DNA of 64,000 bases from Bacteroidota bacterium (GCA_040387195.1 JAZKEF010000011.1:102393-166392), one strand, 5' to 3'. Shown: positions 10,526-32,786, numbered from the stretch's first letter. The notes: generated from the sequence alone by a model not told the origin. Numbers and translations: made by a program.

Positions 10526-10552
10526 TTGAACTAAATTCTTTTTTATAAATGG

Positions 10553-13172: not shown

Positions 13173-13332
13173 GTTTACTTCGGAAATTGGTAAAAAGAAG
13201 TATATTGAACAGCATATGTGTATTACAACTGTGCCATATCACCTTAATGGGGGATTTACAACTTACTCTATGCTGTTACATTTGAGGTTGAAAATAGATT
13301 CAACATTTCTAACCTATTAAACAACAAAAATT

Positions 13333-14034
13333 ATGGCACAAGAATTTAATCTCAACTTAAGAGGAGCCTTACTAACTCCAGAAGCAAAACAATCCATCAA
13401 CTATTATTTATGTTTGATTACCATGCCCACATTACCCAATGGTGCGCAACCTGTTTTTACACCCGTGTATCCTACTGATACGGACCCTAGCGGAGTATTG
13501 AATTATACCTACGATGGAATATTTGAAGCAATATCGGGTAATAGCTACTCAGACTATATGTTGCCGATATACGCAAACCAGATGGTGCAGAATGTAACTT
13601 CGGTTAACGTTACCGATTCGGCAGGAAATTATACAAAGGGTGATCCTAACAGCAGAATTCCACCGGTAGCCCCCATTGCAGCAGACCGCAATAGCAATTA
13701 TACTCCCGCCAACCAGGTTTTTATCGGACAGTATAACCGTGCCAATTGTTTTGTGCTTGTAATGGTATCTACCGCTGAAAGTGATTTTCATCCAACAGGA
13801 GGGTATAAAAACACCTTCGGGTCATACACTCCGGTAACTTCGGAGCAGGGTTTGGTCATGCAATGCCAGATGACAGCTGTTGATGGCTTACCCGCCCGTG
13901 CTGTGATTGGTGCTTTTCCTTCAGCCAACGGACAATATGCCTATACACAGGCTATTGACAAGTCTGGTGTAGGTGGTTCTTCCCTTGTTATTCATTGGGA
14001 CCCTAACGGAATTTTTCCACCAATAGATCTTTAA
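13333..14034 (+). CDS. Hypothetical protein, translationally coupled to the first adenylate cyclase
   Basis: 233 aa. Rich in N/Y/T/S/G/P. No signal peptide and no recognisable domain. Stop TAA lies 2 nt before the ATG of the next gene. Confidence 0.5.
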   Translation: MAQEFNLNLRGALLTPEAKQSINYYLCLITMPTLPNGAQPVFTPVYPTDTDPSGVLNYTYDGIFEAISGNSYSDYMLPIYANQMVQNVTSVNVTDSAGNYTKGDPNSRIPPVAPIAADRNSNYTPANQVFIGQYNRANCFVLVMVSTAESDFHPTGGYKNTFGSYTPVTSEQGLVMQCQMTAVDGLPARAVIGAFPSANGQYAYTQAIDKSGVGGSSLVIHWDPNGIFPPIDL

Positions 14035-14036: not shown

Positions 14037-15926
14037 ATGAAAAGAAGAGTTTATTTGCTGTTGTGTATTGCTATGTTTTCTTTAACTGCTTATGCAGGGA
14101 ATAGGGATGCGCAGGATACTGCAGCAGTAAATAAGCTTCTCCGACAATCTTCTTCTCTGCAACGCAGCAATGTAGATTCATGCTACCTTTTAGCTATACA
14201 AGCATTACAGCTATCTCAAAATGCTCAATATCAACAAGGTTTAGCCGGAGCCTATATACGCATGAGTGCAGTGATGATGATTAAAGGGAAGAGTGATTCA
14301 GCAATGAGTTATGCTCAAATGGCAATTGCTATAAGCGAGCACATAGAAGACCATCTTAGAACATCATATGCATATCTGTTAATGGGATACTTGTATCAGG
14401 ATAAAGGCATGCCGGATTCATCAATGGCAATGATTTATGAGTCGCAACGCTATGGTGAATTGGCAAAGGACTCCGGCAATCTTCTGAGGGTATTTGGTGT
14501 ATTGGGAAATTTTCATCTAGAGTATAAAGAGTATGATAAAGCATTGTTTTATTATCTAAAAACATATAAGCTTTCACTTAAGGTGAATAATATGTCCTCA
14601 GCTGCTGATGCCCTTATAGGAATTGGCAATGTGTATTATTTTAAAGGGAAGTTGCACACTGCACTACGGTATTATTTTAAGGTTGATTCGTTGAGCAGAC
14701 TTCTAAATGAAAAAACAGGGGTAGCTCAGAACTTAAATAATATAGCGTTGTGTTATGCCGATTTGAAACAATATGACAAGGCGCTGGACTATTACCTGAT
14801 GGCGTTGAAGGAATACCAGGCATTTGGTATGCGCAGTGAGGAGGCTAATTTATATTATAACCTTGCCTGTATGTATGAGGCGCTCCAACAGAGCAATGGT
14901 GTGGTTTTTTATGCGAACAAAGCTCTTATACTTGCTCAGGAGTTGGATGGCAGGGATAAAGTTGCTAAATGTTACCAATTATTGGCTAGAGCATACGGAC
15001 AAAAAGGAGATTACACCAAAGCATATCACTACCAGGAACAATATGCATTGCTGAATGATTCTTTGCTGAACACCGAAAAAGTACGCAGCATCAGTGAAAT
15101 GCAAACCAAGTATGAGACTGAACTCAAAAACCAGGAGATTGCTATTTTGCAGAGGGAGAATGATATCAGCAGGTTAAAAGCTTCTCGGAGTTTGGGAATG
15201 AATGTGGGGTTGGGGAGTGCGTTGCTCGGAATTGTGTTTGTTGCATTTGGTTTTTATACCCAAAGCAAGAAAAAAGAAAAGCTGAACACTGAGCTAACCT
15301 TTGAAAAGAAAAAGTCGGATGATTTGCTCCTGAACATTTTACCGGAAGAAGTAGCCAACGAACTCAAACAAAACGGAGAGGCCGTTGCCCGCCAGTACAA
15401 CAATGTAACGGTGTTGTTTACTGATTTTGTAAACTTTACCGGACTCAGCGAACAAATGAGTCCCACCGAACTGGTGCAGGAAATTCACCGGAACTTTACG
15501 GCTTTTGATGCCATCATTGAAAAGCATGGATTGGAAAAAATAAAGACTATCGGTGATGCATATTTAGCAGTGTGCGGATTGCCTAATGAAACCACAGACC
15601 ATGCACAACGTGTTGCCAGAGCTGCGTTGGATATCCGCGATTATATGGCTAATAACTCAGGTAAGTTTGAAGTGCGTATAGGTATTCATAGCGGTCCTGT
15701 GGTTGCCGGAATTGTAGGGGTTAAAAAATATGCTTACGACATTTGGGGTGATACGGTGAACACCGCAAGTCGCATGGAAAGCAGCAGTGAAGCCGGTAAA
15801 ATCAATATCAGTACATCAACTTATGAATTGATAAAAGCAGCATTCAATTGCACCTACCGCGGTAAAATAAACGCCAAACATAAAGGGGAAGTAGACATGT
15901 ATTTTATTGACCAATCGGTAACTTAA
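14037..15926 (+). CDS. Class III adenylate cyclase with periplasmic TPR sensor domain and one TM
   Basis: Signal peptide. TPR repeats, coiled coil and a TM helix. Cyclase domain FTDFVNFTG...KTIGDAYLAV...YDIWGDTVNTASRME...KGEVDMYF carries metal-binding Asp, the adenine-specifying Lys/Asp pair, and Asn, Arg and Lys catalytic residues. Confidence 0.85.
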   Translation: MKRRVYLLLCIAMFSLTAYAGNRDAQDTAAVNKLLRQSSSLQRSNVDSCYLLAIQALQLSQNAQYQQGLAGAYIRMSAVMMIKGKSDSAMSYAQMAIAISEHIEDHLRTSYAYLLMGYLYQDKGMPDSSMAMIYESQRYGELAKDSGNLLRVFGVLGNFHLEYKEYDKALFYYLKTYKLSLKVNNMSSAADALIGIGNVYYFKGKLHTALRYYFKVDSLSRLLNEKTGVAQNLNNIALCYADLKQYDKALDYYLMALKEYQAFGMRSEEANLYYNLACMYEALQQSNGVVFYANKALILAQELDGRDKVAKCYQLLARAYGQKGDYTKAYHYQEQYALLNDSLLNTEKVRSISEMQTKYETELKNQEIAILQRENDISRLKASRSLGMNVGLGSALLGIVFVAFGFYTQSKKKEKLNTELTFEKKKSDDLLLNILPEEVANELKQNGEAVARQYNNVTVLFTDFVNFTGLSEQMSPTELVQEIHRNFTAFDAIIEKHGLEKIKTIGDAYLAVCGLPNETTDHAQRVARAALDIRDYMANNSGKFEVRIGIHSGPVVAGIVGVKKYAYDIWGDTVNTASRMESSSEAGKINISTSTYELIKAAFNCTYRGKINAKHKGEVDMYFIDQSVT

Positions 15927-15945
15927 TGTATATTTAGCGCTACTC

Positions 15946-17937
15946 ATGAACAGCATATTTAAATCCACAATGACCATCCGAAAATACATACTTGTTGTTT
16001 TGTTGTGTAGCTTATGTTCGACCATAACACATGCTCAACGAGCAAAAGATACCTTAAGCGTTTCATTGACGATGGATAGTTTATCCTCCTCATTTAACCG
16101 CCTTTGGTGGAAGTATTCTCCGGTTGACGATTCGGCCGCAGTTGCCCCGGCATTTAATGACAGCAACTGGAAGTATATGCTTTCCGAAAGAATTGATTCG
16201 AACAACTTTAAAGGAATTGGTTGGTTCAGATTACACTTTACCATTGATTCAACTATGGTGCATAAACCCATTGCTTTCGGGATGCGGCAAAAAGGGGCAT
16301 CGGAAATCTATCTTGATGGCAAACTGGTAAAGCGCTACGGCAACATTAACGGAAAAGACAGCACGGAGCATTACGACCCGCAAAATGTACCGATTATTCT
16401 AATTATGGATTCGGTGGGTGAACATGTATTGGCAGTGAGATATGCCCGTTATGATTTTCCGCATGGGGAGTACGTAGGTTTTTCAATAGAGATGTCTTCG
16501 GCCGACAATACCATTGAACAAAAGCGGGTGAATGATGTGCTCATAACGGTATTTTTGATTGTGCTGTTTGTTGTATTCTTTACACTGAGCTTTTTACATT
16601 TATTGTTTTTCCTGTACTACAAACACAATGTATCCAATTTGTGGTTCAGTATCTTCATGTTTTGCATTGCCGGAATCTGGTTTGCCAACTTTTGGGCATT
16701 GTTTACCAGTGATCCCGATTTTAATGCGCGCTTAAAAGACGCGATGATGGTTTTTGCCTGCATAGCGTGTTTTTCTTTTTTGCTGTTCATTCATATCCTG
16801 TTTGCCAACCAAAAAAGATGGTGGATCATTATAGCGTTTTTGTTAAGCACCATTACCATGGTTGTGTATTTTTCAGATTCATTTGATGCAGGACCACTGA
16901 TGTTTGTGATGCTGGGTTATGTTGCTGTGTATAGTATTGTGTGTCTGTTAAGAGCCATTATCAAAAAGATAAAAGGTGCAGTGATTCTGGGAGTGGGGTT
17001 TGGCTTTTTCATGGTGTCCTTATTTTTTGTGGTGCTCCTGGCCTTTATTATGGAGGGGTTGGAATTTAATACAGGCAATAGCGTCCTCGGTGGAATATTG
17101 GTTGTCGTTCTATTGCTGGATATTGTATGTATTCCAATCACCATGTCGGTATATCAGGCGTGGATGTTTGCCAAATTAAATAAAGACCTTACCTCACAAC
17201 TGCAACAAGTAAAAGACCTTTCGGAAACCACCATCAAACAGGAGCAAGAGAAAAAACAGATTCTTGAAAACCAGAATGCACAATTGGAGTTGATGGTGGC
17301 CGACCGTACCGCACAACTTACACTCGAAAAACGCAAGAGTGATGAATTGCTCCTCAATATATTACCCGAAGGTGTTGCCGAAGAACTTAAAAATACCGGC
17401 AGTGCCGAGGCCAAACAATACAATAATGTAAGTGTACTGTTTAGCGATTTTGTGAATTTTACCGGCTTGAGTGAACGTATGACGCCAACCGAGCTGGTAA
17501 AGGAAATTCACCGTCATTTCACAGCATTTGATGCTATTATTGAAAAACACGGATTGGAAAAAATAAAAACGATCGGAGATGCATACATGGCAGTATGCGG
17601 TTTACCGGTTGAAACACCCGACCATGCCCAACGTGTGGTAAGGGCATCATTGGATATTTTGCACTACATGGAACAATCGGGAAGCAGGTTCAGTATTCGG
17701 ATGGGTGTGCATACCGGAGCTGTTGTTGCCGGAATTGTGGGTGTAAAAAAGTATGCGTATGATATTTGGGGTGATACGGTAAATACAGCAGCGCGTATGG
17801 AACAAAACAGTGAGTCTGGAAAAATCAATATCAGCGGTACTACTTATGAACTGGTGAAACGTGAATTTACCTGCACACACCGCGGAAAGATTCAGGCGAA
17901 GAATAAAGGGGAGATTGATATGTACTTTGTGAATTAA
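15946..17937 (+). CDS. Class III adenylate cyclase with a 7TMR-DISM sensor (DISMED2 extracellular domain plus 7 TM)
   Basis: N-terminal extracellular domain NWKYMLSERIDSNNFKGIGWFRLHFTIDS. Seven hydrophobic helices and a coiled coil. Cyclase domain as in 14037..15926. Confidence 0.8.
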   Translation: MNSIFKSTMTIRKYILVVLLCSLCSTITHAQRAKDTLSVSLTMDSLSSSFNRLWWKYSPVDDSAAVAPAFNDSNWKYMLSERIDSNNFKGIGWFRLHFTIDSTMVHKPIAFGMRQKGASEIYLDGKLVKRYGNINGKDSTEHYDPQNVPIILIMDSVGEHVLAVRYARYDFPHGEYVGFSIEMSSADNTIEQKRVNDVLITVFLIVLFVVFFTLSFLHLLFFLYYKHNVSNLWFSIFMFCIAGIWFANFWALFTSDPDFNARLKDAMMVFACIACFSFLLFIHILFANQKRWWIIIAFLLSTITMVVYFSDSFDAGPLMFVMLGYVAVYSIVCLLRAIIKKIKGAVILGVGFGFFMVSLFFVVLLAFIMEGLEFNTGNSVLGGILVVVLLLDIVCIPITMSVYQAWMFAKLNKDLTSQLQQVKDLSETTIKQEQEKKQILENQNAQLELMVADRTAQLTLEKRKSDELLLNILPEGVAEELKNTGSAEAKQYNNVSVLFSDFVNFTGLSERMTPTELVKEIHRHFTAFDAIIEKHGLEKIKTIGDAYMAVCGLPVETPDHAQRVVRASLDILHYMEQSGSRFSIRMGVHTGAVVAGIVGVKKYAYDIWGDTVNTAARMEQNSESGKINISGTTYELVKREFTCTHRGKIQAKNKGEIDMYFVN

Positions 17938-18039
17938 CATCAAAGTTTGACACACCGAGCAGGTTGTTGGGAAACACATTGTAATTTAAGTACCTTTAAA
18001 ATGTGTTCGGTAAAATATTGTTGAACAACGTATCTACTC

Positions 18040-20127
18040 ATGCGTAATTGGTTTTTATTTGGTCTGTATCTATCCATGACGGCATGGCTGTGTGTCGTAA
18101 ACGGATATGCGCAATCCTCTGCCAAGAATGTTAGACTCGATTCACTATTGAAAATAGATGTAAACGTCATTCCTGTTGATTCACTCAAAGCCGATCATTA
18201 TGATCGTATTGCAACAACTTACAGTTCCTCTTCTGATTACTTGCATGCATGCGAATATTGGCAAAAATCAATGGATATAGCCACATCCACAAATGATAAG
18301 CAACGGGCTGTTAAATATTTGGGAAGTCTGGGTCTCGAATACATTGCAATGGCTCACTACCCCAAGGCACTGGAGTGTTTTTTGAAGGCACTTGCATTTG
18401 CTGAACAAGCAAAAAACCGGAGTGCCATTACCAATTACCTCAACCACTTAGGCCGGGTTTACATGTTTTTGGGTGATTATCCCAAAGCGCTCGAATACTA
18501 TCAAAAAGCACTGGTCATCAGTGAAGCTGCAGGGTTAAAAAATCCGGTTGCAAAGCAGCTCCGTAATATTGGAAATACCTATAATAAAATGGGAGATTAT
18601 CCTAAAGCCATCGAATACCTGAAAAGGTCACAACTGCTTTTCGACAGCCTAGGTATCAAAGAAGGAGGAATGATTAGTTTGGGAATCATCGGTTCAGTGT
18701 ATCTTAATATAGCGGATTACGAGCGCTCGTTGGAATATTTACAAAAGGCACTGGTGATGAGTCGCCAGGCAAATAATAAACGCCAGGAAAGCATGAATCT
18801 GCTAAACATAGGCAAAGCTTACCGTGAAGCACCGGATCATATTCTGCTGAAAGCCGGAATACAGCCTGCTCAACGGAATGTAAGAGTATTAGAGTATTTA
18901 TACCTTGGCCAGCAAACAGCAAAAGAAATAAATGATGCAGGAACCGAAAAAATAGCATGGGAAGCCCTGAGTGATACCCATGAAAAGCAAGGTAATTATA
19001 TCAAAGCGTATCAGGCATACAAACAATACATTGTACTTCGTGATAGCATTGAAGGAAGTGAAACAAAAAATACCATTGCGATCAAAGAGATGCAGTTTGA
19101 TTTTGATAAACGGGAAACAAAACTATTGTTTGATCAGCAACTCACACACGAAAAACTGAGACAGCAGGAATTGCTCACACGCCAACAACAGCTTGATTTG
19201 GGCCTTAAACAACAACAATTAGTATTGAGTTTGCAAGATAAAAATCTGCAGCACCTGGTCTTTCTTAAAACACAAGCCGAGTTACAACAGGAGCGGATAG
19301 CAGGAGAGAACCAGCAGGCACTCTCGGCAAAAAAAGATGCAGAGCTTAAATTGTTAAGTAACGAAAAGGCCTTACAGGAAACAAAGCTTGAACTAACAAC
19401 CAACGAACTTACAGCAAAGGAAAATCAGCGAAATGGATTCATCATCGGTACGGTACTGTTGTTGTTTTTTGCAACTGCTGTTGTAATGGGATTAAAACGA
19501 ACTTCTGCAGAAAAGAAAAAGTCGGAAGCATTGTTGCTGAATATTTTACCAAGTGAAGTAGCCATGGAACTCAAACAAACGGGGGAAGCCATTGCCAAAC
19601 AATACAATCATGTAACGGTATTATTTACCGACTTTGTAAACTTCACGGGTATCAGCGAACAACTCTCCCCAACGGAATTGGTAGCAGAGGTTCATAAAAA
19701 CTTCACAGCCTTTGATGCCATTATCGAAAAACACGGATTGGAAAAAATAAAGACTATTGGCGATGCCTATCTGGCTGTATGTGGCTTACCGAATGAAACA
19801 GAAAATCATGCGCAACAGGTAGTGAGAGCGGCCTTGGATATTCAATTATTTATGAGTCAAAACGGAAATAAATTTCAGGTACGTATCGGCATCAATTCTG
19901 GAGCTGTTGTGGCCGGAATTGTGGGCGTTAAAAAATACGCATACGATATCTGGGGTGATACCGTAAACACGGCAAGCCGCATGGAAAGCTGCAGCGAAGC
20001 CGGTAAAATCAACATCAGTGGTGCTACTTATGAACTCATCAAACATGATTTTCGCTGTGAGCATCGAGGTAAAATAACCGCCAAAAACAAGGGAGCGGTT
20101 GATATGTATTTTGTGGAAGGGGTGTAG
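18040..20127 (+). CDS. Class III adenylate cyclase with TPR sensor, long coiled coil and one TM
   Basis: 695 aa. Same architecture as 14037..15926. Confidence 0.85.
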   Translation: MRNWFLFGLYLSMTAWLCVVNGYAQSSAKNVRLDSLLKIDVNVIPVDSLKADHYDRIATTYSSSSDYLHACEYWQKSMDIATSTNDKQRAVKYLGSLGLEYIAMAHYPKALECFLKALAFAEQAKNRSAITNYLNHLGRVYMFLGDYPKALEYYQKALVISEAAGLKNPVAKQLRNIGNTYNKMGDYPKAIEYLKRSQLLFDSLGIKEGGMISLGIIGSVYLNIADYERSLEYLQKALVMSRQANNKRQESMNLLNIGKAYREAPDHILLKAGIQPAQRNVRVLEYLYLGQQTAKEINDAGTEKIAWEALSDTHEKQGNYIKAYQAYKQYIVLRDSIEGSETKNTIAIKEMQFDFDKRETKLLFDQQLTHEKLRQQELLTRQQQLDLGLKQQQLVLSLQDKNLQHLVFLKTQAELQQERIAGENQQALSAKKDAELKLLSNEKALQETKLELTTNELTAKENQRNGFIIGTVLLLFFATAVVMGLKRTSAEKKKSEALLLNILPSEVAMELKQTGEAIAKQYNHVTVLFTDFVNFTGISEQLSPTELVAEVHKNFTAFDAIIEKHGLEKIKTIGDAYLAVCGLPNETENHAQQVVRAALDIQLFMSQNGNKFQVRIGINSGAVVAGIVGVKKYAYDIWGDTVNTASRMESCSEAGKINISGATYELIKHDFRCEHRGKITAKNKGAVDMYFVEGV

Positions 20128-20249
20128 TTGACGGTTCATAGTTCATAGTGGGAGGAAACAGTTTCTCTTCTTTGCGGTAGGCATCTGCTCATCCTCACCT
20201 ATTCCCCTTCCTCCCCCTAATTGGGTATTTTTCAACCAATACAGCATCC

Positions 20250-20257
20250 TACATTTG
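20250..20257 (+). promoter_or_regulatory. Candidate Bacteroidetes sigma-A -7 box TACATTTG (TAnnTTTG)
   Basis: Sits in the conserved CTACATTTGA motif upstream of the 20348 gene. The same motif occurs at 13277 and 29211. Confidence 0.35.
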
Positions 20258-20347
20258 ATTCGAAACAAATTGCACCCGACTAGATGTTCGATACATGTTA
20301 CTCGATAGCGGCATCATGCAATACTTGAAACTTTAAATCTACTCAAT

Positions 20348-21235
20348 ATGAAAACAACAGTACTTACTTTGATGATGGTTGCCTGTTTATGCTTCCATGC
20401 ACATGCCCAGATTCCCAACAACGGATTTGAAACCTGGACCAACAATGATCCCGATGGATGGGTAACCACCAATGGATTGATGCTGCTGGGCAATCCGCAG
20501 TCGGTGTTTAAATCAACGGATGTTCACAGCGGCAGTTTTGCGTGCGAAGTAAACACCGTAAACATTGCCACCAAACCTCCGGGAGTATATGTTCCTGATT
20601 TTACAGGATCTGTATTTACAGGTAAACAGGTGTTTGTTACTTCATACTTTGGTTTTCCGTATACCAACAAACCGGGGAAACTAAGCTTCTGGTATAAATA
20701 CAATGCACGCAATAATGATACGGCAAGTGTTCTTGCTTACACAACCAAATGGAATGCAACACTGCAAAAACGCGATACATTATCGATAGCGGTTAGCATG
20801 ATTAAAGATTCGGTAGGAGTGTATACTAAAGGAGAGGTGATGTTTTATGTAATGGACTCCTTGCAATCTCCCGATACTGCAGTGGTATTGTTTGCATCGA
20901 GCATGGTTACTGCAACACAGGCTGGAGCAAAATTGTTGCTGGATGATGTTGAGTTTATGGGAGGAAATGTTGGCTTAACGGAAGCGGGGGCACCTTCATT
21001 TAACATTTTCCCCAATCCGGTTAAAGATGGTTCTGTGCAGTTACAATTTGAAAAGCCAGAAGTATCGGTAATAATTAACGTGTTTGACATGCAGGGAAAA
21101 AATGTCCTGACACAATCAACAAATACAGCAACCGGTAAGATGGTGCTATCAACCTTACAATTTTTACCCGGATTATACATACTCTCTGTTCAAACAGAAC
21201 AAGGCACTGCTGTAAAACGATTGATTATTCAATAA
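20348..21235 (+). CDS. T9SS-secreted CBM-like protein
   Basis: Signal peptide. NGFETW start typical of CBM4/9-like beta-sandwich domains. C-terminal T9SS sorting domain PNPVKDGSVQLQFE...LPGLYILSVQTEQGTAVKRLIIQ. Confidence 0.65.
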   Translation: MKTTVLTLMMVACLCFHAHAQIPNNGFETWTNNDPDGWVTTNGLMLLGNPQSVFKSTDVHSGSFACEVNTVNIATKPPGVYVPDFTGSVFTGKQVFVTSYFGFPYTNKPGKLSFWYKYNARNNDTASVLAYTTKWNATLQKRDTLSIAVSMIKDSVGVYTKGEVMFYVMDSLQSPDTAVVLFASSMVTATQAGAKLLLDDVEFMGGNVGLTEAGAPSFNIFPNPVKDGSVQLQFEKPEVSVIINVFDMQGKNVLTQSTNTATGKMVLSTLQFLPGLYILSVQTEQGTAVKRLIIQ

Positions 21236-21253
21236 CCGGTCAGCATTACTCTG

Positions 21254-24214
21254 ATGATAACCGGTATTAGGAAAGCCATTTATGTACTAGGATGCATGGG
21301 AATATTGATGTGTATCAATACCCGGAAAAGTGCTGCTCAGGAATTCCGTTCTCAATCAAGAAAATATGTGGAAGAGGCCGATACATTGGATGGTGCAGAG
21401 GGAAATATAGAGGCCAGGTTCATTCGCGGTAATGTTAAATCGGCAACAACCAATGAAGTGTTGCCGGTCGCTATTATCAGACAAGCAGGAACAACCTATG
21501 CCGTAAATTCCAACCTTGATGGCGGATTTACCATGAAGCTGGATGTGCGCAAACCTGTTCAACTCATCTGTTATTATTTGGGTTTTTCGCCTGATACCAT
21601 TACTGTAACGGAACACACAACGTTCATCAACTTTCGGTTGCAGGAGACTTTTGCTTCCATTAAAGATGTAGTGGTTTCAGCATCGCGTAAAAATGAAAAG
21701 AGGTTTGAAAGCCCCGTTACAATTGAATCTTTGACTGCCCGCGACCTGCAGGTAAATCCAACATTGAATATGTACGAACGCATGACCAACATGGCCACTG
21801 TTGATGCAATTACTACCAGCGCCAATTTTAAAACACTCAACACGCGCGGATTTAATTCAAGTTATAATCAACGGTTTATTCAACGGTTGGATAATATGGA
21901 TTTATCCATGCCCGGTTTTAACCTTTCGCTGGGAGCTCTGAATGGTCCCGTTGATTTGGATGTGGAACGCATGGAGTTGATTCCGGGAGCCAATTCAGCA
22001 TTATATGGTCCAAATGCTATTAGCGGATTAATGAATACCACTTCCAAAAATCCGTTTCAATACCAGGGACTAAGTGTTGAATTCAAGTCCGGCATGAACC
22101 ATATTGGTGATCCTTCTATCAGTCCGCAACCGATGATGGATTTTAACCTCCGGTATGCAAAAGCTCTTAGCAGAAAAGTTGCCGGCAAGATAACCTTTGG
22201 ATATATGCAGGTTTCGGATTGGCGTGCTACCGACTACCGAGATGTATCAAACTATAATTATTCGAATAACCTTACAACATACGGATATGAAAAGGGACCT
22301 GGAAACCCAGGTTATAACGGACTAAACATAGGTGGAGATGAAGTGTCGGCAGTGTTTGATACCAGCATCAAAGCACCTATTACCAATCAACCGTTTCTTG
22401 AAAAGGGAGCATTGCGTGTTTCCCGTACAGGTTATCGGGAGGACCAGTTGTTTACGTATAAACCATATATGCTTAAAGGGGATGTTGGATTTTATTACCG
22501 GCCCAAAAAAGGAATGGAGTTATCCTGGACTTCCCGTTTCGGATTGGGCAGTAGTAATTTTCAAACAGACAACCGCACACAAATTACAGGTTATTTTTTG
22601 CAACAGCATAAAGTAGAGTTAAGCGGACGTAACTATGTGTTCAGGTCGTATGTAAGTGCCGAAGATATTGGAGAAGCCATCGATATCAGTCTTACTTCTG
22701 TTAACTTAAACCGAGCAGCCAAACCTGATGAAAACTGGTTTATGCAATACCTGTTTGTGTATTCCGGGCAATATAATAACCTGGCCATGGCGGCCGGACT
22801 CGATACCATTCAGGGCGGTAATGATGCGTTGGCGAGGAAATTTGCGGATGGTAACAACGAACATTTGTATCCGTATATCAACGCATTTGATACGGCAAGT
22901 GCAAAACTAATTTTAGGCAATTCCAGGTTCGAACCCGGCACAAAAGGTTTTGATTCGGTATTAAACATTATCAAAGGAAAAGCCTTTAAAGATGATGGAG
23001 GACGGATAAAAAGTACCTCAAAAACGTGGTATACGGAGTTTGTATACAATTTCCCCATTCGCAATAAATCTTGGTCGTTACAGTCAGGTATCAATTACCG
23101 CCTGTATGCTCCCAATACTTCCGGATCTGTATTTCCCGATACGAGCAGCCTTATTTATTTTAAAGAGGTGGGAGGGTTTGTGCAAGGAGGAAAAACATTT
23201 TTCAATAACAGGCTCAAACTTCAAGGGTCAACACGAGTGGATGCATTTCAGCAATTCGATCCGCGACTAAGTCCAAGGCTTTCTGTGGTATTGATGCTGG
23301 GTAAAAAGCAACAACACAGTGTAAGGATGTCGGCACAAATAGGCTTTCGAATGCCTCCGCTTATTGATATGTACTCATACATGAATGTAAAAGGTGCACT
23401 TACGTTTGGTGGTTTTTTACAGGATGCGTATAACCTCAATCTGGTGAGGCGTACACCTGATGGTGGGGAGTTTGTAAATATGTACACCCAAAGCTCGGTA
23501 AACGAATATTTGTATACCGGTGATTCAAACAGGCTGGTAAAGCCTGTGATAAAAGATATTGCTCCCGAAGAGTTGCGTACCATTGAGTTTGGCTGGAGAA
23601 GTTTTTTATTCAACAAACTTGAGTCTGATTTCAATGTGTATTTTAATTCCTTTCAAAACCTTATCAGTGCACAACAATATGTTGGGCCGATTAACCGCAC
23701 CGATACTATTAATCCAGCGTATGTTAAAAATCAGCAGCAAACCCAAGTTTACCGTAGAGCAGCAAATTCCAATTTCCCGGTAAGCTCATATGGAATAGCC
23801 ATCACTACCAATTATTATGTAAGCCATAAATGGTCATATTATGCTAATTACAATTTCAACGAACTCATTACATCTGTAGATTTTATCAGCAAAAATTTTG
23901 AAAAGGGATTCAATACGCCCAGGCATAAAGTAAACGTAGGAGTGAAGGGTACACGGTTTTACAGAAACTTTGGTATGGCCGCAAACCTGCGTTGGGTGGA
24001 CGCATTCTACTTTGCAGAGTACGACAGAATAGGTACTCTGGATGCATACTATTCAATTGACCTTGCCATCAATTACACCTTTATTAAACAAAAAGTGATG
24101 TTGAAACTAGGAGGGACAAATATTACCAATCAGGCTTATATACAAGCTTTGGGGTCGCCCACTGTTGGCGCATTGTACTATGTTTCTATCCTGTATGACG
24201 GATTGATCAAATAG
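21254..24214 (+). CDS. TonB-dependent receptor (CarboxypepD_reg, plug, barrel)
   Basis: 986 aa. N-terminal regulatory-like domain. Plug with RKNEKRFESPVTIESLTARDLQ. Large beta-barrel. No adjacent SusD-like gene. Confidence 0.8.
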   Translation: MITGIRKAIYVLGCMGILMCINTRKSAAQEFRSQSRKYVEEADTLDGAEGNIEARFIRGNVKSATTNEVLPVAIIRQAGTTYAVNSNLDGGFTMKLDVRKPVQLICYYLGFSPDTITVTEHTTFINFRLQETFASIKDVVVSASRKNEKRFESPVTIESLTARDLQVNPTLNMYERMTNMATVDAITTSANFKTLNTRGFNSSYNQRFIQRLDNMDLSMPGFNLSLGALNGPVDLDVERMELIPGANSALYGPNAISGLMNTTSKNPFQYQGLSVEFKSGMNHIGDPSISPQPMMDFNLRYAKALSRKVAGKITFGYMQVSDWRATDYRDVSNYNYSNNLTTYGYEKGPGNPGYNGLNIGGDEVSAVFDTSIKAPITNQPFLEKGALRVSRTGYREDQLFTYKPYMLKGDVGFYYRPKKGMELSWTSRFGLGSSNFQTDNRTQITGYFLQQHKVELSGRNYVFRSYVSAEDIGEAIDISLTSVNLNRAAKPDENWFMQYLFVYSGQYNNLAMAAGLDTIQGGNDALARKFADGNNEHLYPYINAFDTASAKLILGNSRFEPGTKGFDSVLNIIKGKAFKDDGGRIKSTSKTWYTEFVYNFPIRNKSWSLQSGINYRLYAPNTSGSVFPDTSSLIYFKEVGGFVQGGKTFFNNRLKLQGSTRVDAFQQFDPRLSPRLSVVLMLGKKQQHSVRMSAQIGFRMPPLIDMYSYMNVKGALTFGGFLQDAYNLNLVRRTPDGGEFVNMYTQSSVNEYLYTGDSNRLVKPVIKDIAPEELRTIEFGWRSFLFNKLESDFNVYFNSFQNLISAQQYVGPINRTDTINPAYVKNQQQTQVYRRAANSNFPVSSYGIAITTNYYVSHKWSYYANYNFNELITSVDFISKNFEKGFNTPRHKVNVGVKGTRFYRNFGMAANLRWVDAFYFAEYDRIGTLDAYYSIDLAINYTFIKQKVMLKLGGTNITNQAYIQALGSPTVGALYYVSILYDGLIK

Positions 24215-24241
24215 TCCATTTCTGATTTTAAATGTTTATTA

Positions 24242-27139
24242 ATGACGGCCTCAATGAGAAAATTCACACTCGCCATATTCTTTCATACTGTTGTATGCAT
24301 CTCTGTTGTAATAGCCCAACATGATTTGGTAAATCAGTATTCATCCAAACAATACAATGCCCATACACTCATGTGGGATATGGTTGGGGATGAACACGGA
24401 TATCTTTGGTTTGCCAATAATGATGGTGTAGTGAGATTTGACGGAAACAACTGGATTACGTTTCCAACACCCAATCCAGTCAGAAGCTTGGTAGTTACAA
24501 AAAGGGGAGAAATATTTGTGGCTTGCCTTGAAGATTTTGGGGTACTCACATTTACAAGTTCAGGGGGGACACAATTTATCAGTTTTAAAAAGCAACTTGA
24601 TGTATCACAAGTAGCCGGAGGTGGAGGAGAAAAGGTTTTTATGATGGATGATAATGTGTATTTTTCATCAGGTCATTCCATTTTTACAGTAAGTAAACAG
24701 CATGGTGAATATAAGATTACAGTAGTTGATAAGGAAAAAAATCTGGGTTGTGGGGTGTTGCAGCATAAACTGTTTTCAAACCATACACGACAAGGGTTTG
24801 GATGGATTCAGGGTGGACGTTTTACTCCTCTTAGAAATGGATATGAGCTGGCCGGTAAACAAATTGTTCAAACGGTTTCATTCGCGAAACAAGACCTGAT
24901 ATTTACCAATTATGATGGCGTGTATCGTCTCAAGGATAATATCCTGAGCAAGGTGTTACAAAATGCATTAACCGGCTTTACAATGAATGGGGTAGCAGAT
25001 GCGGTTGTAATTGGGCATCAAAAACTCGCTGTGGCAACCTACCATGATGGTGTTAAAATATTCGACAGCAACATGCAGGAAATAACCATTCCCGAATTGC
25101 CTTCCCGTGAAATCTATCAACTCGGTGCCGACCATGAACAAAACCTTTGGATATCGCACCTGAAAGGAATAACGCAGGTATTAACAGGTTTGCCGGCCAC
25201 AACATTTAAATACCCTGCTGTGTCGGGGTATATCAATAAGATTGAGAAGCTTGGCGGTAATATTTACCTGAGTAGTACAAATGGATTGTTCGCAACAACT
25301 TCGGGCAACCCCACACATATTACACCGATTGCCGGAATGAATACGGAGTGTTGGGATATTCAACCCTTTCATCATACACTCTATGTGGCCACCACAAACG
25401 GTTTGTATACTGTTGATGGTTTGAATACCAAATTGGTTGTACCCAATGAAACATTTACTCAGCTTCAGGTAAGTAATCTTTCAGGAAAGCTCTACGCGTT
25501 CGGATTGAATAATTGTTTCACTGTTGATGAATACCAAACAATTATACCTCTTAAAAACTTTACAACGACATCCAACTCTGTTTTTGAAAACAAGGATGGA
25601 AGTATATGGGTGGGGACAAATCACAATGGCCTGATGCATATTACAACCAACGGGAAGGGACAACTGGAGATTCCAATGGAGTTAACCACCGGAGAAGTGC
25701 GCATTCGTATCATTGATGGATCGCCCCTTTTTCAAAGCAAGGAAGCGGTATTCAGGTTTGAGGGAAGCACTTTCAGAAAAGATGAGGAGTTGTCGAAGTT
25801 ATGGATGGGAAATCGAAACAGTGAGTTGACGCAACAAAATAACTGGTTGTTTACAGATAAAGAATGGAAGCTGACGGTAGCCGGTAAACCTGTAACAGCA
25901 CATATTGCTTATGGTTTAAATGGAAAACCAACAACTGTGTTTCATGAAAAGGACAAAGATTGGTTTGCGACAGAGGATAATATGTATTGGATTAATGCAG
26001 GGTTGAACAAACCCGACAGGTTGATTGCCAATGTGAGCAGGGTTGAATACGGTAAAGAAGGAGTAGCTTTCAGCGGGTTGTTTGTAACCCAAAACGATGA
26101 GGTCTCCATTGTGCAGGATATTATTCCAGAGATCCAACACAATGAACAAATAATTACCATATGGTTTGGGTTAAACTCTTTTTACAATCCGGCAAAAAAT
26201 CAGTACCGGTATACCATAACAGGTATCAATGAGGAGTGGAGTGAATGGAGTGATGAGTCCAAACTTACCTTAAGCGGACTACCGGCCGGAAGCTATACAC
26301 TAACCGTGCAAGCCCGCGATGCTTTTGGTGATGAATCGGAAACAGGAAGTTATACCTTTTACATCAAGCCTGCTTGGTATCTTAGCGGTATTGCTTTCAT
26401 GGTATACATTCTGGGATTGTTTTTGGTTATGTATGGCGTGGTGCTACTCTACAACAAACGGTTGGTTTTTAAAAATAAGGAGCTCGAACAACGGGTACAG
26501 GAACGCACCGTTGAGCTCAAGAATGAAAAACAAAAGTCGGATGCCTTGCTGTTGAATATTTTACCGGAAGGTGTGGCCGAAGAATTGAAGAATAAGGGAT
26601 ATGCAGAGGCCAAACAATACAACCATGTAACGGTGTTGTTTACCGATATGGTGAACTTTACCGGCATCAGCGAGCAGATGACGCCCCGGGAACTCGTTGC
26701 TGAAATCCACCAAAACTTCACAGCGTTCGATACCATCATCGAAAAACACGGACTAGAAAAAATAAAAACAATCGGAGATGCCTATTTAGCTGTAAGTGGT
26801 TTGCCAATCGAACACCACAATCATGCGCAACGTGTAGCAGCTGCAGCTTTAGATATTCAACAATACATGGCTCAAAATAACGGGAAGTTTCAAATCCGGA
26901 TAGGACTTCACTCAGGACCTGTAGTGGCCGGAATTGTGGGGGTAAAAAAATACGCTTTCGATATTTGGGGTGATACCGTAAATATGGCAGCCCGTATGGA
27001 GCAAAACAGTGAAGCAGGAAAAATCAATATCAGTGCAGCTACTTATGAGTTAATTAAGGATGATTTTACATGTGAATACCGTGGTAAAATTAACGCCAAG
27101 AACAAAGGAGAAGTAGATATGTATTTTGTGGTGAGCTGA
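24242..27139 (+). CDS. Class III adenylate cyclase fused to an HTCS-type periplasmic sensor (Reg_prop beta-propeller repeats plus Y_Y_Y domain) and one TM
   Basis: 965 aa. N-terminal repeats fit the two-component-regulator propeller pattern. Y_Y_Y-like YRYTITGINEEWSEWSDESKLTLSGLPAGSYTLTVQARDAFG lies just before the TM. Cyclase domain as in the paralogs. Confidence 0.75.
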   Translation: MTASMRKFTLAIFFHTVVCISVVIAQHDLVNQYSSKQYNAHTLMWDMVGDEHGYLWFANNDGVVRFDGNNWITFPTPNPVRSLVVTKRGEIFVACLEDFGVLTFTSSGGTQFISFKKQLDVSQVAGGGGEKVFMMDDNVYFSSGHSIFTVSKQHGEYKITVVDKEKNLGCGVLQHKLFSNHTRQGFGWIQGGRFTPLRNGYELAGKQIVQTVSFAKQDLIFTNYDGVYRLKDNILSKVLQNALTGFTMNGVADAVVIGHQKLAVATYHDGVKIFDSNMQEITIPELPSREIYQLGADHEQNLWISHLKGITQVLTGLPATTFKYPAVSGYINKIEKLGGNIYLSSTNGLFATTSGNPTHITPIAGMNTECWDIQPFHHTLYVATTNGLYTVDGLNTKLVVPNETFTQLQVSNLSGKLYAFGLNNCFTVDEYQTIIPLKNFTTTSNSVFENKDGSIWVGTNHNGLMHITTNGKGQLEIPMELTTGEVRIRIIDGSPLFQSKEAVFRFEGSTFRKDEELSKLWMGNRNSELTQQNNWLFTDKEWKLTVAGKPVTAHIAYGLNGKPTTVFHEKDKDWFATEDNMYWINAGLNKPDRLIANVSRVEYGKEGVAFSGLFVTQNDEVSIVQDIIPEIQHNEQIITIWFGLNSFYNPAKNQYRYTITGINEEWSEWSDESKLTLSGLPAGSYTLTVQARDAFGDESETGSYTFYIKPAWYLSGIAFMVYILGLFLVMYGVVLLYNKRLVFKNKELEQRVQERTVELKNEKQKSDALLLNILPEGVAEELKNKGYAEAKQYNHVTVLFTDMVNFTGISEQMTPRELVAEIHQNFTAFDTIIEKHGLEKIKTIGDAYLAVSGLPIEHHNHAQRVAAAALDIQQYMAQNNGKFQIRIGLHSGPVVAGIVGVKKYAFDIWGDTVNMAARMEQNSEAGKINISAATYELIKDDFTCEYRGKINAKNKGEVDMYFVVS

Positions 27140-27176
27140 TGGAATCTAAAAATAAAGAATAAGAAGGTAGTAGCCT

Positions 27177-29090
27177 ATGAATAAACTTACTGTGCTTTTG
27201 CTTGCAATATTTTTGGTGCTGACCAGCTTTGCTCAGGAACAGCAGCTCATTGACTCGCTGGAAACAGAAGTGAGAAATATCAATGCGGCTAAGATCGATC
27301 CTGGCAAATTGACGTTAAAAGTTAATGACACCACGGAGGCAAATACCCTGTTTCTCTTGGCTAGAAGTTATATTGATATTAATCCGCAGAGGGCATTCGA
27401 TCTTTCGGATCAGTGCCGGATCCTTTCAGAACGCATTGGATACAAAAAGGGAATGGGCAATGCATACAATTGTTTTGGAAGCCTTTTGGTAAACAAGGGG
27501 GATTTCATGTCGGCCATGGAATATTATAAAGCAGCATTCAAAATAAGGGAGGAAATAGGCGACAAGGAAGGCTTGGCAGCTCTATATAATAACTTTGGAA
27601 TGATTTATTATAACAGTGGCAATTACCCTAAGGCGTTGGCAAGCTACCTCACTGCACTGGAAATGAATACTGCTTCAGGAAATAAACAATGGCAGGCCTA
27701 TAACCTCATGAATATCGGACATATTTATTCCAGTTCAAAAAACTATTCCGAAGCCATGAAATACTATGTTGCCAGTTTAAGTACTAGCAAGGAAATAGGA
27801 GATGTAGGGGGAATAGCACTCTCATACAATCATATCGGAGATGTGTATAAAAACCAAAATAATAACGCACAGGCGTTAAAGTATTTTGTAAGATGTTTAA
27901 AAATGAAAGAGGAGTTTGGGTATAAAGACCTTGAAGCATTATCCTATAATAATATTGGAGAGGTTTACAAAGATCAACAGAAGTATCCGGAGGCATTAAG
28001 GAATTTTTTCGCAGCATTAAAAATAAGTGAGGAAGCAGGGTATAAAGATGGTGTAGGCATGTCATACAATTTTATTGGAATAGTATATACCCTGCAAAAA
28101 AAATACAAAGAGGCTAAAGTGTATTTGCAAAAGGGACTATTGCTTTCAACGGAGGTAGGAAATATTGAAAATATTAAAGATAGTTATGATGCATTAGCTA
28201 AGCTTGCTGCCGATGAAGGGGATTTAGGTGCTTCGTTGGGCTATTACAAGAACTATATATTGTATAGGGATAGCATGATGAATCATGAGAATACCCGAAA
28301 AATAACCCAGCAGCAAATGCAATTTGATTTTGATGCAAAAGAGTCCGTCAGAAAATCAGCACAGGAAAAGAAAGATACATTGGATAGAGTTGTGCGAAAT
28401 GTATTGATTGGAGGATTGTTGACGATGCTGCTGTTCTCGGTTATATTTTTTATACAGCGAAATTCCATAAGCAAAGGCAAAAGGGAAAGTGATAGGTTAT
28501 TGTTGAATATTCTTCCGTCAGAGATTGCCGAAGAACTCAAAAAAAAGGGAGAAACGGTTGCCCGGCAATACAATCATGTAACGGTTTTGTTTACGGATTT
28601 TGTCAATTTCACAGGCATCAGTGAACAAATGACACCAAACGAACTGGTTGCCGAAATACACCGAAACTTTACGGCTATTGATACCATCATCGAAAAACAC
28701 GGACTGGAGAAAATTAAGACCATTGGCGATGCCTATTTGGCGGTAAGTGGTCTACCCAATGAAACTCCTGATCATGCGAGTCGCGTTGCACATGCTGCGT
28801 TAGACATTCGTGAATATATGAGCATACATAAAGGGAAATTTGAAATACGTATAGGTATCAATAGTGGTCCTGTAGTAGCCGGTATTGTTGGTGTAAAAAA
28901 GTACGCTTACGATATATGGGGCGATACCGTAAACACCGCAGCACGCATGGAGCAAAACAGTGAGGCAGGAAAAATTAATATCAGTGCCTCAACGTATGAG
29001 TTGATCAAGAATAGTTTTACTTGTGAGTACAGAGGCAAGATAGAGGCAAAGAACAAAGGGGATATGGATATGTATTTTTTGATGAGCTGA
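27177..29090 (+). CDS. Class III adenylate cyclase with TPR sensor and one TM
   Basis: 637 aa. Same architecture as 14037..15926. Confidence 0.85.
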   Translation: MNKLTVLLLAIFLVLTSFAQEQQLIDSLETEVRNINAAKIDPGKLTLKVNDTTEANTLFLLARSYIDINPQRAFDLSDQCRILSERIGYKKGMGNAYNCFGSLLVNKGDFMSAMEYYKAAFKIREEIGDKEGLAALYNNFGMIYYNSGNYPKALASYLTALEMNTASGNKQWQAYNLMNIGHIYSSSKNYSEAMKYYVASLSTSKEIGDVGGIALSYNHIGDVYKNQNNNAQALKYFVRCLKMKEEFGYKDLEALSYNNIGEVYKDQQKYPEALRNFFAALKISEEAGYKDGVGMSYNFIGIVYTLQKKYKEAKVYLQKGLLLSTEVGNIENIKDSYDALAKLAADEGDLGASLGYYKNYILYRDSMMNHENTRKITQQQMQFDFDAKESVRKSAQEKKDTLDRVVRNVLIGGLLTMLLFSVIFFIQRNSISKGKRESDRLLLNILPSEIAEELKKKGETVARQYNHVTVLFTDFVNFTGISEQMTPNELVAEIHRNFTAIDTIIEKHGLEKIKTIGDAYLAVSGLPNETPDHASRVAHAALDIREYMSIHKGKFEIRIGINSGPVVAGIVGVKKYAYDIWGDTVNTAARMEQNSEAGKINISASTYELIKNSFTCEYRGKIEAKNKGDMDMYFLMS

Positions 29091-29158: not shown

Positions 29159-29200
29159 GGGAGGGGCCCCCCTCCCCATATTGTGGTATTTTTTCAGTAC
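29159..29200 (+). terminator. Rho-independent terminator after the last cyclase
   Basis: gggagggg-cc-cccctccc GC hairpin followed by atattgtggtatttttt. Confidence 0.6.
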
Positions 29201-29232
29201 ATCCTGATTCTACATTTGAATAGTGCAGTTGT

Positions 29233-31953: not shown

Positions 31954-32040
31954 CAGTTCAAAAATACGTAGAGGGTTATAATAATAAATCCCCAAATAGG
32001 GGGATAATCAAATGTAGTCACATTTTTTATATTATTGTAA

Positions 32041-32736: not shown

Positions 32737-32786
32737 TAGTAAACCAACAACAAGCACGATACCTTTGAATAGTAATCAACCCATCT

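Follow-up and report, generated by a model that had tools for sequence, protein, structure and literature searches.

A tandem cluster of five predicted receptor-type class IIIa adenylate cyclases with different periplasmic sensors in a Bacteroidota genome

Gene content and receptor architecture

This study describes a gene cluster in a 64-kb stretch of DNA from a Bacteroidota bacterium (GCA_040387195.1, JAZKEF010000011.1:102393-166392), hereafter called the window, in which positions are counted from the first letter. On the + strand, eight genes are packed closely together between 13.3 and 29.1 kb and a ninth comes after them; five, here named AC1 to AC5, end in a class III nucleotide cyclase domain. 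A preliminary description made from the same sequence had placed five such genes here, and the open reading frames (ORFs) were found at exactly those positions, each with one C-terminal Guanylate_cyc domain (PF00211; E 1.7e-57 to 1.7e-54, 185–194 bits against a cut-off of 21.9), with matches spanning model positions 2/3 to 182/183. A tblastn search with the catalytic domain returned five copies in the 64-kb window, exactly those of AC1–AC5, and an independent repeat search recovered a catalytic segment of about 600 nucleotides (nt) in five copies of 71–77% identity. The GC content is 0.40–0.42 across the island and uniform with the flanks.

The five proteins differ in the parts that precede the cyclase domain. 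AC1 (14037-15926, +) consists of a signal peptide, a periplasmic tetratricopeptide repeat (TPR) sensor, one transmembrane (TM) helix at amino acids (aa) 386-404, a putative signalling helix and a class IIIa cyclase domain (aa 451-625, nt 15387-15911). AC2 (15946-17937, +) has a signal peptide, an extracellular domain of about 165 aa, seven TM segments that appear to be of the 7TMR-DISM type, a coiled coil and the cyclase domain (aa 488-663, nt 17407-17934). AC3 (18040-20127, +) joins a signal peptide and a periplasmic TPR sensor, which includes a long coiled coil, to a TM helix (aa 467-485) and the cyclase domain (aa 519-694, nt 19594-20121). AC4 (24242-27139, +) is the largest, with a signal peptide, a periplasmic part of about 690 aa composed of a double beta-propeller and Y_Y_Y, a TM helix (aa 717-735), a putative signalling helix and the cyclase domain (aa 789-964, nt 26606-27133). 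AC5 (27177-29090, +) again carries a signal peptide, a periplasmic TPR sensor and one TM helix (aa 408-426) before its cyclase domain (aa 462-636, nt 28560-29084).

Hydropathy analysis gave a signal-peptide-like start in each of AC1–AC5 and a TM helix, or the last of seven, just before the catalytic part. Because both the signal peptide and the TM position lie upstream of the catalytic domain, the sensors are placed in the periplasm and the cyclase domains in the cytoplasm. Pfam identified TPR in AC1, AC3 and AC5 and Reg_prop with Y_Y_Y in AC4, and these matches agree with the signal peptide and TM placement in supporting the earlier view that the extracytoplasmic sensors are of different kinds (three TPR, one 7TM and one propeller). 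The domains named for AC2 fared less well in Pfam than Guanylate_cyc, TPR, Reg_prop and Y_Y_Y, all of which were recovered: the 7TMR-DISM_7TM model scored 27.4 bits, under its cut-off of 29, and the profile search found no DISMED2 or DISMED match in the extracellular domain, which has a marginal similarity to a GH2 sugar-binding domain (E 0.14). Seven TM segments are nevertheless present by hydropathy, and the AC2 relatives in L011 and L027 match the 7TM model at 73–79 bits; here and below, names of this kind denote genome, assembly or metagenome stretches, and the cyclase-related ones amount to 1.42 Mb in total.

The sensor types have known counterparts. The 7TMR-DISM receptors form a family with diverse outputs, including cyclases, and AC2 resembles them in its N-terminal extracellular domain, seven TM segments and cytoplasmic output. 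AC1, AC3 and AC5 resemble TPR-sensor regulators of Bacteroidota, such as the FimS histidine kinase of Porphyromonas gingivalis and the SusR-type TPR sensors, in the succession of signal peptide, periplasmic TPR, TM and cytoplasmic output; they differ in that the predicted output is cAMP synthesis, and the scores are far under the family cut-offs (weak NCBIfam FimS matches, E 1e-14 to 7e-29), so that they are not members of these families.

Catalytic domains and predicted specificity

The catalytic block comprises 194 aa, is gap-free in all five proteins and is 74–82% identical in aa sequence between paralogues. The motifs FTD/FSD, KIKTIGDAY, Y(A/F)DIWGDTVN, A(S/A)RME and AKxKG carry invariant key residues, and D43, D87, K83, D148, N155, R159, K194 and K196 (alignment A1 numbering) are the same in AC1–AC5. 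The top sequence matches among solved structures were the mammalian adenylate cyclases AC5, AC8 and AC9 and the mycobacterial Cya/Rv1625c (E 1e-59 to 1e-41). In the alignment to mammalian AC5/8/9, both Asp residues of the window proteins fall on the C1 metal ligands. The Lys before TIGD and the Asp of YDIWG correspond to the adenine-specifying pair of C2, whose transition-state residues are matched by the Asn, Arg and Lys. The claim that every domain holds the full residue set of a homodimeric adenylate cyclase is upheld by this invariance and by the residue equivalence taken from the mammalian alignment. As the metal, specificity and transition-state residues all lie within one chain, the enzymes are of the homodimeric type, unlike the pseudo-heterodimeric mammalian cyclases.

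Directly before the catalytic domain, the segment KSDxLLLNILP is conserved in all five proteins, and AC1 and AC4 gave weak matches to the C-terminal, signalling-helix type part of HNOBA (19–20 bits, cut-off 23.4). The window proteins resemble Rv1625c/Cya and mammalian AC5/8/9 in the metal, substrate and transition-state residues and, apparently, in the presence of a signalling helix before the catalytic domain. They differ from Rv1625c, which is anchored by 6TM and lacks a large periplasmic part, in carrying a large periplasmic TPR, DISM or propeller sensor. Judged by these residues, AC1–AC5 are predicted class IIIa homodimeric adenylate cyclases, which should make cAMP.

It is quite improbable that these domains are not adenylate cyclases in vivo, either because they form cGMP or act on another nucleotide or because they are inactive scaffolds. 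Prediction of specificity from the Lys/Asp pair is usually, not always, right; on the other side, the Lys before TIGD and the Asp in YDIWGD occur in all five proteins at positions that are occupied by Glu and Cys in guanylate cyclases, both metal Asp residues and the Asn, Arg and Lys are invariant, and the dN/dS of the catalytic block, given below, speaks against decay.

The PADLOC models of PycC also match the catalytic domains (E 1e-16 to 1e-21), and the cyclases could on that ground be taken as part of a Pycsar-type anti-phage system. We rejected this reading, whose chance is close to nil. The PycC scores of 57–73 bits are far under the 185–194 bits obtained with Pfam and reflect the common fold, and no gene for a cyclic nucleotide (cNMP)-binding effector adjoins the cyclases in the window. 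Furthermore, these are large receptors that sense in the periplasm and carry purine-type specificity residues, the composition of the region is uniform with its flanks, and the locus is syntenic in relatives.

Age and relatives of the array

Between paralogues, the DNA of the catalytic block is 69–76% identical. This is slightly lower than the 75–80% given in the preliminary description, whose statement that most differences are synonymous holds, as third codon positions account for about 93–110 of the roughly 150–180 nt differences per pair. Over the pairs, pS is 0.70–0.79 and thus saturated, dN/dS is about 0.05–0.08, and identical stretches reach 26 nt at most.

The Logan assembly L079 carries AC1, AC2, AC3, the gene for a protein exported by the type IX secretion system (T9SS), the gene for a TonB-dependent receptor (TBDR) and AC4 in the same order as the window, followed by the same universal stress protein (USP), HD-like, histidine kinase, response regulator and methyltransferase genes. 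The catalytic domains of L079 are 85–91% identical to their window orthologues, whereas the window paralogues are only 74–82% identical to each other; since the orthologues are closer than any pair of window paralogues, AC1–AC4 diverged before the L079 and window lineages split. Together with the saturated synonymous sites, these orthologues bear out the earlier proposal of old duplications kept under purifying selection, with no recent conversion.

The sensors of L079 are 61–72% identical to those of the window, and the corresponding values are 89% for the TBDR, 99% for USP2, 94% for the response regulator and 79% for USP1. By these comparisons, the sensors are the fast-evolving parts and change faster than the catalytic domains. 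The L079 orthologue of AC1 (91% in the catalytic domain, 61% in the sensor) has a Pfam TPR_SusR match. AC2 has orthologues in L079 (88% catalytic, 65% sensor) and L011 (80% over the full length), and in L011 and L028 these are also closer to it than its window paralogues are; AC3 has orthologues in L079 (sensor 72%, catalytic 85%) and L082. AC5 is without a counterpart in L079, where USP1 directly follows AC4, and its nearest sensor relative, in L013, is 50% identical, a distribution that would make AC5 a later gain in the window lineage or a loss in that of L079. In the relative JAZKGH01 (L011, L015), whose flanks have 80–87% DNA identity to the window, a cyclase cluster with partly different members occupies the same site between hutD and usp.

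A recent lineage-specific amplification, or an array kept uniform by gene conversion, is very improbable and already largely refuted. The five catalytic domains are indeed similar and gap-free, AC4 and AC5 pair weakly on the tree, and AC5 is missing from L079. Set against this are the saturated synonymous sites, the shortness of the identical runs, and the fact that AC1–AC4 are each closer to their L079 orthologue than to any window paralogue, as AC2 also is to its orthologues in L011 and L028.

A neighbour-joining tree of 105 catalytic domains does not group the five of the window as a clade; with its star-like backbone and no bootstrap support, it is used here on that point only. The catalytic domains that belong to orthologues of the AC4 sensor are scattered over two distant parts of the tree (the window as compared with L024, L045, L080 and L081), and in L080 and L081 the domain most similar to that of window AC4 belongs to a 7TM-PAS cyclase encoded nearby rather than to the orthologue of AC4. 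These data suggest past exchange of catalytic domains between neighbours.

Tandem same-strand arrays of at least two cyclase domains occur in 20 of 75 related loci, with six domains in 14 kb in L005 and four in L018, and other array members are 7TM-PAS cyclases and GAF cyclases, the latter adjoining an nSTAND1-WD40 protein. The earlier term island is therefore apt as to clustering, since the paralogues did not prove to be scattered in the related genomes, and too strong if it is meant as a speciality of this genome, since such arrays are common. The earlier claim of a sizeable cAMP network was likewise put too strongly for 64 kb of sequence. The Genome Taxonomy Database (GTDB) representatives contain 562 confirmed matches of the family, which occurs widely there in metagenome-assembled genomes of Chitinophagales-, Saprospirales- and Cytophagales-like type; the best full-length match of AC3 among the species representatives is 49% identical. 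In NCBI and JGI automatic annotation these proteins are already adenylate/guanylate cyclase domain proteins (AC4: 'adenylate/guanylate cyclase domain-containing protein').

As a separate observation, in L018 (11463-15991) and L045 (6069-10636) a 1012-aa nSTAND1 NTPase-WD40 protein is encoded directly upstream of a GAF cyclase, within arrays.

The T9SS protein, the TonB-dependent receptor and the AC4 sensor

Two genes stand between AC3 and AC4. The first (20348-21235, +) encodes a T9SS-exported protein of 295 aa with a putative carbohydrate metabolism domain (PCMD, 34.5 bits) and a C-terminal sorting domain of type A (Por_Secre_tail at aa 220-294, 47.6 bits; TIGR04183, 60.6 bits). The second (21254-24214, +) encodes a TBDR of 986 aa with an N-terminal CarbopepD_reg_2 domain and a Plug domain.

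The order T9SS gene, TBDR gene and AC4 is found in seven assemblies, namely the window, L024, L027, L079, L080, L081 and L082, and a TBDR gene immediately precedes an AC4-type sensor gene in L018, L024, L027 (twice), L034, L045, L079, L080, L081 and L082. The triad is kept down to 34–37% sensor identity and 53–55% TBDR identity, with gaps of 13–43 nt between TBDR and sensor genes. The gene behind the same TBDR in L034 (1965-4985) encodes a sensor homologous to that of AC4 (40% over 794 aa), with HisKA and HATPase_c as its output, and the next gene there (5100-8009) encodes an AC3-like TPR sensor that likewise has a kinase output. By sequence, L034 is a case of an output-domain swap between kinase and cyclase. 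The 17 closest AC4-sensor clusters comprise 14 with a cyclase output, two with a kinase and one that is truncated.

The AlphaFold2 model of the 690-aa periplasmic part of AC4 is confident (pLDDT 88.8, pTM 0.83). Its top Foldseek matches were the periplasmic domains of Bacteroides thetaiotaomicron BT4663, BT3049 and BT4673 (E about 1e-27, TM-score 0.70–0.75, about 13% identity), and its sequence matches in the PDB were 3v9f and 4a2l. AC4 thus resembles the hybrid two-component systems (HTCS) of Bacteroides, of which BT4663 is the heparin/heparan sulphate sensor and lies beside SusC/SusD loci: it has a double beta-propeller and Y_Y_Y followed by one TM helix, and it is encoded beside an outer-membrane TonB-dependent transporter. 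Unlike an HTCS, it has a cyclase as its output, without histidine kinase, receiver and AraC domains, and the sensor identity is about 13%. AC4 is therefore not an HTCS, since its C-terminus is Guanylate_cyc only; what it has is the HTCS sensor module. A further difference from HTCS loci is that a T9SS-sorted PCMD protein stands in place of a surface glycan-binding lipoprotein.

The preliminary description had named ligand delivery as one possible role for the T9SS protein and the TBDR, and this gains support from the recurrence of the triad in seven assemblies and from the fold match of the AC4 sensor to glycan sensors. The best-supported reading of the module is an import-coupled, HTCS-type periplasmic sensor with cAMP output. 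The T9SS protein would capture a glycan-like ligand at the surface, the TBDR would import it in a TonB-driven manner, and the double-propeller sensor of AC4 would bind it in the periplasm, with cAMP as the readout instead of a phosphorelay.

Alternatively, and with a distinctly smaller chance, the T9SS protein and the TBDR are targets or passengers, that is, an uptake system co-transcribed with AC4 or regulated by it, with the AC4 ligand entering the periplasm by another route. The NCBIfam search gave no TIGR04056 match for the TBDR, which is therefore not of the SusC/RagA type, and the Pfam search found no SusD and no glycoside hydrolase or other CAZyme domain in the island. The other genes under the operator described below also include outer-membrane or T9SS proteins, and the TBDR may belong to an envelope or iron regulon. 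However, the gene order and the short gaps are kept in the seven assemblies down to the low sensor identities given above, the order persists even with the histidine-kinase output of L034, and the AC4 sensor has the fold of receptors that bind imported oligosaccharides. These points favour import-coupled sensing.

The partner protein of AC1

Immediately upstream of AC1, the gene g13333 (13333-14034, +) encodes a protein of 233 aa that is predicted to be all-beta, and its stop codon lies 2 nt before the AC1 start. The protein has no Pfam, NCBIfam or PADLOC match and no signal peptide, and no fold relative of it was found. An exhaustive HMMER search of 1.84 billion representatives gave only 25 relatives, all of 214–265 aa, which have the conserved N-terminus M-x4-N-x-N-L-R-G. 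In eight of eight contexts examined (L005, L007, L016, L024, L058, L076, L077 and L078), a member of this family is encoded directly upstream of an AC1-type TPR sensor. The product of g13333 would be an orphan cytoplasmic beta-sandwich protein that is translationally coupled to AC1.

Predicted operons, promoter boxes and a shared palindrome

From g13333 to USP1, the gene that follows AC5, the intergenic gaps are, in order, 2, 19, 102, 220, 18, 27, 37 and 142 nt. The Bacteroidota −7 promoter box has the consensus TAnnTTTG, and among the array spacers longer than about 100 nt only those of 160, 220 and 142 nt, before g13333, the T9SS gene and USP1, contain such a box. The identical octamer TACATTTG forms it in all three. 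Two operons appear, g13333-AC1-AC2-AC3 and T9SS-TBDR-AC4-AC5, plus USP1. A scan for sigma-70-type promoters gave nothing above chance.

A palindrome precedes these boxes at a fixed distance. In the promoter-like region of the first operon (13238-13284, +), a degenerate palindrome, ATCACC-N6-GGGGAT (13238-13255), is followed by TACATTTG (13277-13284) 23 nt after GGGG, and the same arrangement stands before the homologue of g13333 in L024 and before the AC1-like gene in L015. The corresponding region of the second operon (20211-20257, +) has CTCCCC-N6-GGGTAT (20211-20228) and the octamer (20250-20257) 23 nt after GGGT, an arrangement conserved before the orthologous T9SS gene in L079 and L082. 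Before USP1 (29172-29218, +), a weaker palindrome, CTCCCC-ATATT-GTGGTA (29172-29188), precedes the octamer (29211-29218); the promoter of the orthologous USP1 in L079 has a perfect CCCC-N6-GGGG.

Two further sites lie beyond the array. The site of the HD-like gene (31959-32005, −) contains a perfect 18-bp palindrome, ATCCCCCTATTTGGGGAT (31988-32005), in the divergent spacer between the HD-like and histidine kinase genes, and the −7 box TATTTTTG (31966-31959, −) 23 nt after GGGG. The HD-like ATG is 5 nt past the −7 box, as it also is in L011, L079 and L080, and the transcript may be leaderless, or the true start codon may lie further downstream. The regulator site (32720-32767, +) has ATCCCC-N6-GGTGAT (32720-32737), which overlaps the histidine kinase stop codon, and the −7 box TACCTTTG (32760-32767, +) 24 nt after GGTG, with the regulator gene starting 19 nt past the box. 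L011, L079 and L080 share this layout of kinase, site and regulator, as do three distant loci from metagenomes, L150, L174 and L176.

The consensus ATCCCC-N6-GGGGAT, 23–24 nt upstream of a −7 box, thus has five sites in the window, all within 13.2–32.8 kb, and the sites recur in orthologous promoters of L079, L082, L011, L015, L024 and L080. In the 1.42 Mb of related loci, 264 palindrome-like sites were found, 23 of which have TAnnTTTG exactly 23–24 nt downstream; all other palindrome-to-box distances (0–119 nt) together gave 11 sites, and shuffled sequence gave 0–2. Among these 23 sites, 21 are situated 1–117 nt upstream of an ORF start, including the heads of cyclase operons and USP, HD-like and LuxR-regulator genes. 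By itself, the exact CCCC-N5-7-GGGG shows no enrichment in the window (1 against 1.5 expected), and the signal needs one mismatch allowed together with the fixed distance to the −7 box.

The perfect composite was found at 120 or more loci in public metagenomes. Among the matches listed, ATG starts peak 20–30 nt past the −7 box, and the 83 downstream ORFs of at least 90 aa include 28 FeoA/FeoB fusions, eight LuxR-type response regulators, five TBDRs, four T9SS substrates, two Fur proteins and two hemerythrins. LuxR-type regulator genes also follow the palindrome in four related loci.

Because the same palindromic operator stands at a fixed distance from the −7 box before all of them, the cyclase operons, USP1, the HD-USP2 pair and the regulator gene probably form one regulon. 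From the matches listed, we infer that the main targets of this regulon in other Bacteroidota are ferrous-iron uptake genes, and this position of the operator elsewhere points to an iron- or oxygen-related condition. The most likely operator-binding factor is the adjacent pair of HisKA_3 kinase and LuxR-type regulator; as this pair would then regulate itself, it is the most parsimonious candidate.

Rfam gave no match in the window, and no tRNAs were found. An explanation by a mobile element or riboswitch was dropped on this account and on that of promoter and terminator scans at chance level.

Neighbouring genes and candidate effectors

Downstream of the array, USP1 (29233-30045, +) encodes a tandem universal stress protein of 270 aa (Pfam Usp). 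In 16 of 75 loci, a homologue of it adjoins the cyclase cluster; the one in L011 is 78% identical. USP2 (30498-31355, −), also a tandem protein (285 aa; Pfam Usp, E 8e-28), has a first domain of the nucleotide-binding MJ0577 type (ATP-binding USP), with a PDB match across the nucleotide-binding loop. It forms a pair with the preceding gene of the same strand (31369-31953, −), which encodes a putative HD-like phosphohydrolase of 194 aa with H...HD...D residues; this protein gave weak matches only (Pfam HD-CE, E 0.013; PDB phosphodiesterases, E 0.33), and its orthologues have weak Pfam HD matches. The HD-USP pair recurs in L011, L079, L080 (twice) and L081. On the opposite strand, a soluble histidine kinase of 231 aa with HisKA_3 and HATPase_c and no sensor domain (32041-32736, +; syntenic in L011, L079 and L080) is followed by a response regulator of 212 aa (32787-33425, +) with Response_reg and LuxR-type GerE domains in Pfam, the candidate palindrome binder.

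The earlier remark that no CRP or other cNMP-binding effector lies nearby is sustained and can be extended to relatives. Pfam found no cNMP_binding or Crp domain in window ORFs of at least 120 aa, and a CRP-seeded jackhmmer search of window ORFs of at least 70 aa found none within the limited sensitivity of an approximate Escherichia coli CRP query. Around 84 related loci, PROSITE patterns and jackhmmer, again of limited sensitivity, gave just two cNMP-binding ORFs, in L071 and L070; the one in L071 (10156-10695, −) is a stand-alone cNMP-binding domain protein adjoining a TPR cyclase. The candidate effectors are the USP proteins of nucleotide-binding type or an unlinked cNMP-binding protein. 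That the USPs are cAMP receptors is speculation, as is a role of the HD-like protein as a cAMP phosphodiesterase.

Several other features of the window were noted. To the left of the island, a metal-related cluster (7773-11260, −) encodes an HMA-domain protein, a MauE-HMA fusion and a 732-aa TonB-receptor-like protein with a CarboxypepD_reg N-terminus. Further to the right, two large adjacent T9SS substrates are encoded at 40848-46413 (−), one of which (1012 aa) has SprB repeats and points to a gliding-motility adhesin. A pair of antisense ORFs, each of 290 aa and overlapping almost completely, lies at 53136-54036 in a segment with raised GC content (0.454); neither has a match in Pfam.

Interpretation

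Taking these data together, we read the locus as a chromosomal sensory cluster, in the metagenome-assembled genome of an uncultured, Chitinophagales/Saprospirales-like member of the Bacteroidota, of five receptor-type class IIIa adenylate cyclases with two conserved sub-modules under one regulon, and we give this reading a probability of about 70%. Each enzyme would be built like a sensor kinase with a swapped output, in the succession of periplasmic ligand-binding domain, TM or 7TM part, signalling helix and catalytic domain, and a change in the state of the sensor would cause the catalytic domains to dimerise and turn ATP into cAMP. Expression of the whole cluster would be turned on together, and the HisKA_3 kinase and LuxR regulator next to it are the most likely agents. 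Of this reading, the domain layout, the catalytic residues, the age of the duplications, the gene order in relatives, the fold match and the palindrome are observed, whereas enzyme activity, ligands, the direction of signalling, the protein that binds the operator and the cAMP effector are deduced.

Several points weigh against this reading. The module around AC4 is not a canonical polysaccharide utilisation locus, and a glycan ligand is an analogy only, because there is no SusC/RagA-type TBDR, SusD or glycoside hydrolase. The sensor and catalytic halves appear not to have always co-evolved, as the catalytic domains of the AC4 sensor-orthologues are scattered over the tree. As regards expression, the 102-nt spacer between AC2 and AC3 may hold a promoter of an unrecognised type, and the terminator scan found none above chance. 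The palindrome pattern was derived from the window sites, so that their count within the window is circular, and the metagenome census is a sample of the matches listed and may be biased. A Fur-like or Crp/Fnr-like regulator is a possible alternative for the operator-binding factor, in line with the Fur genes downstream of the palindrome (2 of 83 among the matches listed) and with the 5-6-5 geometry of the palindrome. The nucleotide loops of the USPs deviate from the canonical G-x2-G-x9-G-S/T. Finally, no study of these receptor cyclases, and no reported activity, ligand or effector, was found in the literature searched.

For the regulatory side of the cluster, loose precedents exist. By way of analogy, the DosS/DosR regulon includes USP genes. 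In P. gingivalis, the LuxR-type regulator CdhR is tied to hemin uptake and NO stress, and its gene lies beside a hemerythrin-like gene (PMC11018363). The window likewise has a regulator of the NarL/LuxR family, here with a HisKA_3 kinase and adjoining USP genes, and the palindrome lies, among the matches listed, mostly before feoAB, TBDR and hemerythrin genes in metagenomes. CdhR is without a defined binding site, and binding of the window regulator to the palindrome is put forward as a proposal.

As in Mycobacterium tuberculosis, the class III cyclases of the window are many and diversified in their input, and USP genes are conserved beside them. The mycobacterial universal stress protein Rv1636 is a documented cAMP binder (PMC11107214). 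Unlike the mycobacterial case, the window cyclases are in tandem with a common operator, and the USPs are tandem-domain proteins with non-canonical loops, for which cAMP binding is conjectural.

A more far-reaching version of the joint reading, which we consider possible and rather doubtful, takes the locus as a cAMP counterpart of polysaccharide-locus regulation, with an HTCS-type sensor supplied by a surface T9SS protein and a dedicated TonB-dependent importer, with non-CRP effectors, and with an iron/oxygen-type two-component regulon that acts as a gate through the ATCCCC-N6-GGGGAT operator. According to this version, the TPR/SusR-like, 7TM-DISM and HTCS-type receptor cyclases may converge on one cAMP pool, which would possibly be read by the co-regulated USPs, with the HD-like protein as a possible phosphodiesterase.

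In its general nature, the locus is an ordinary kind of object, being made of modular receptor cyclases that arose from domain shuffling, and arrays of this kind are common and automatically annotated in the clade. Three features were undescribed in the literature searched: an HTCS-type sensor-cyclase is coupled, in a conserved manner, with a TBDR and a T9SS protein of its own; one type of TPR cyclase is strictly paired with an orphan protein; and a common operator links the cyclases with the genes for USPs, the HD-like protein and the LuxR-type regulator and, in other Bacteroidota, with feoAB.

In Bacteroidota, cAMP signalling is almost unexplored territory. Among the first four genomes of the phylum, an early census reported no adenylate cyclases (PMC1183210). 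The locus offers a compact and testable system, with five soluble catalytic domains, a modelled sensor with a dedicated importer, an orphan partner and an 18-bp operator, and the confident sensor model together with the dedicated importer makes ligand hunting feasible. If the proposed interpretation is not true, the locus is another case of domain shuffling among bacterial sensors. If it is true, a second messenger can serve as the output of glycan-sensing modules in Bacteroidota, and the cluster would provide the first candidate regulon and effectors for cAMP in the phylum.

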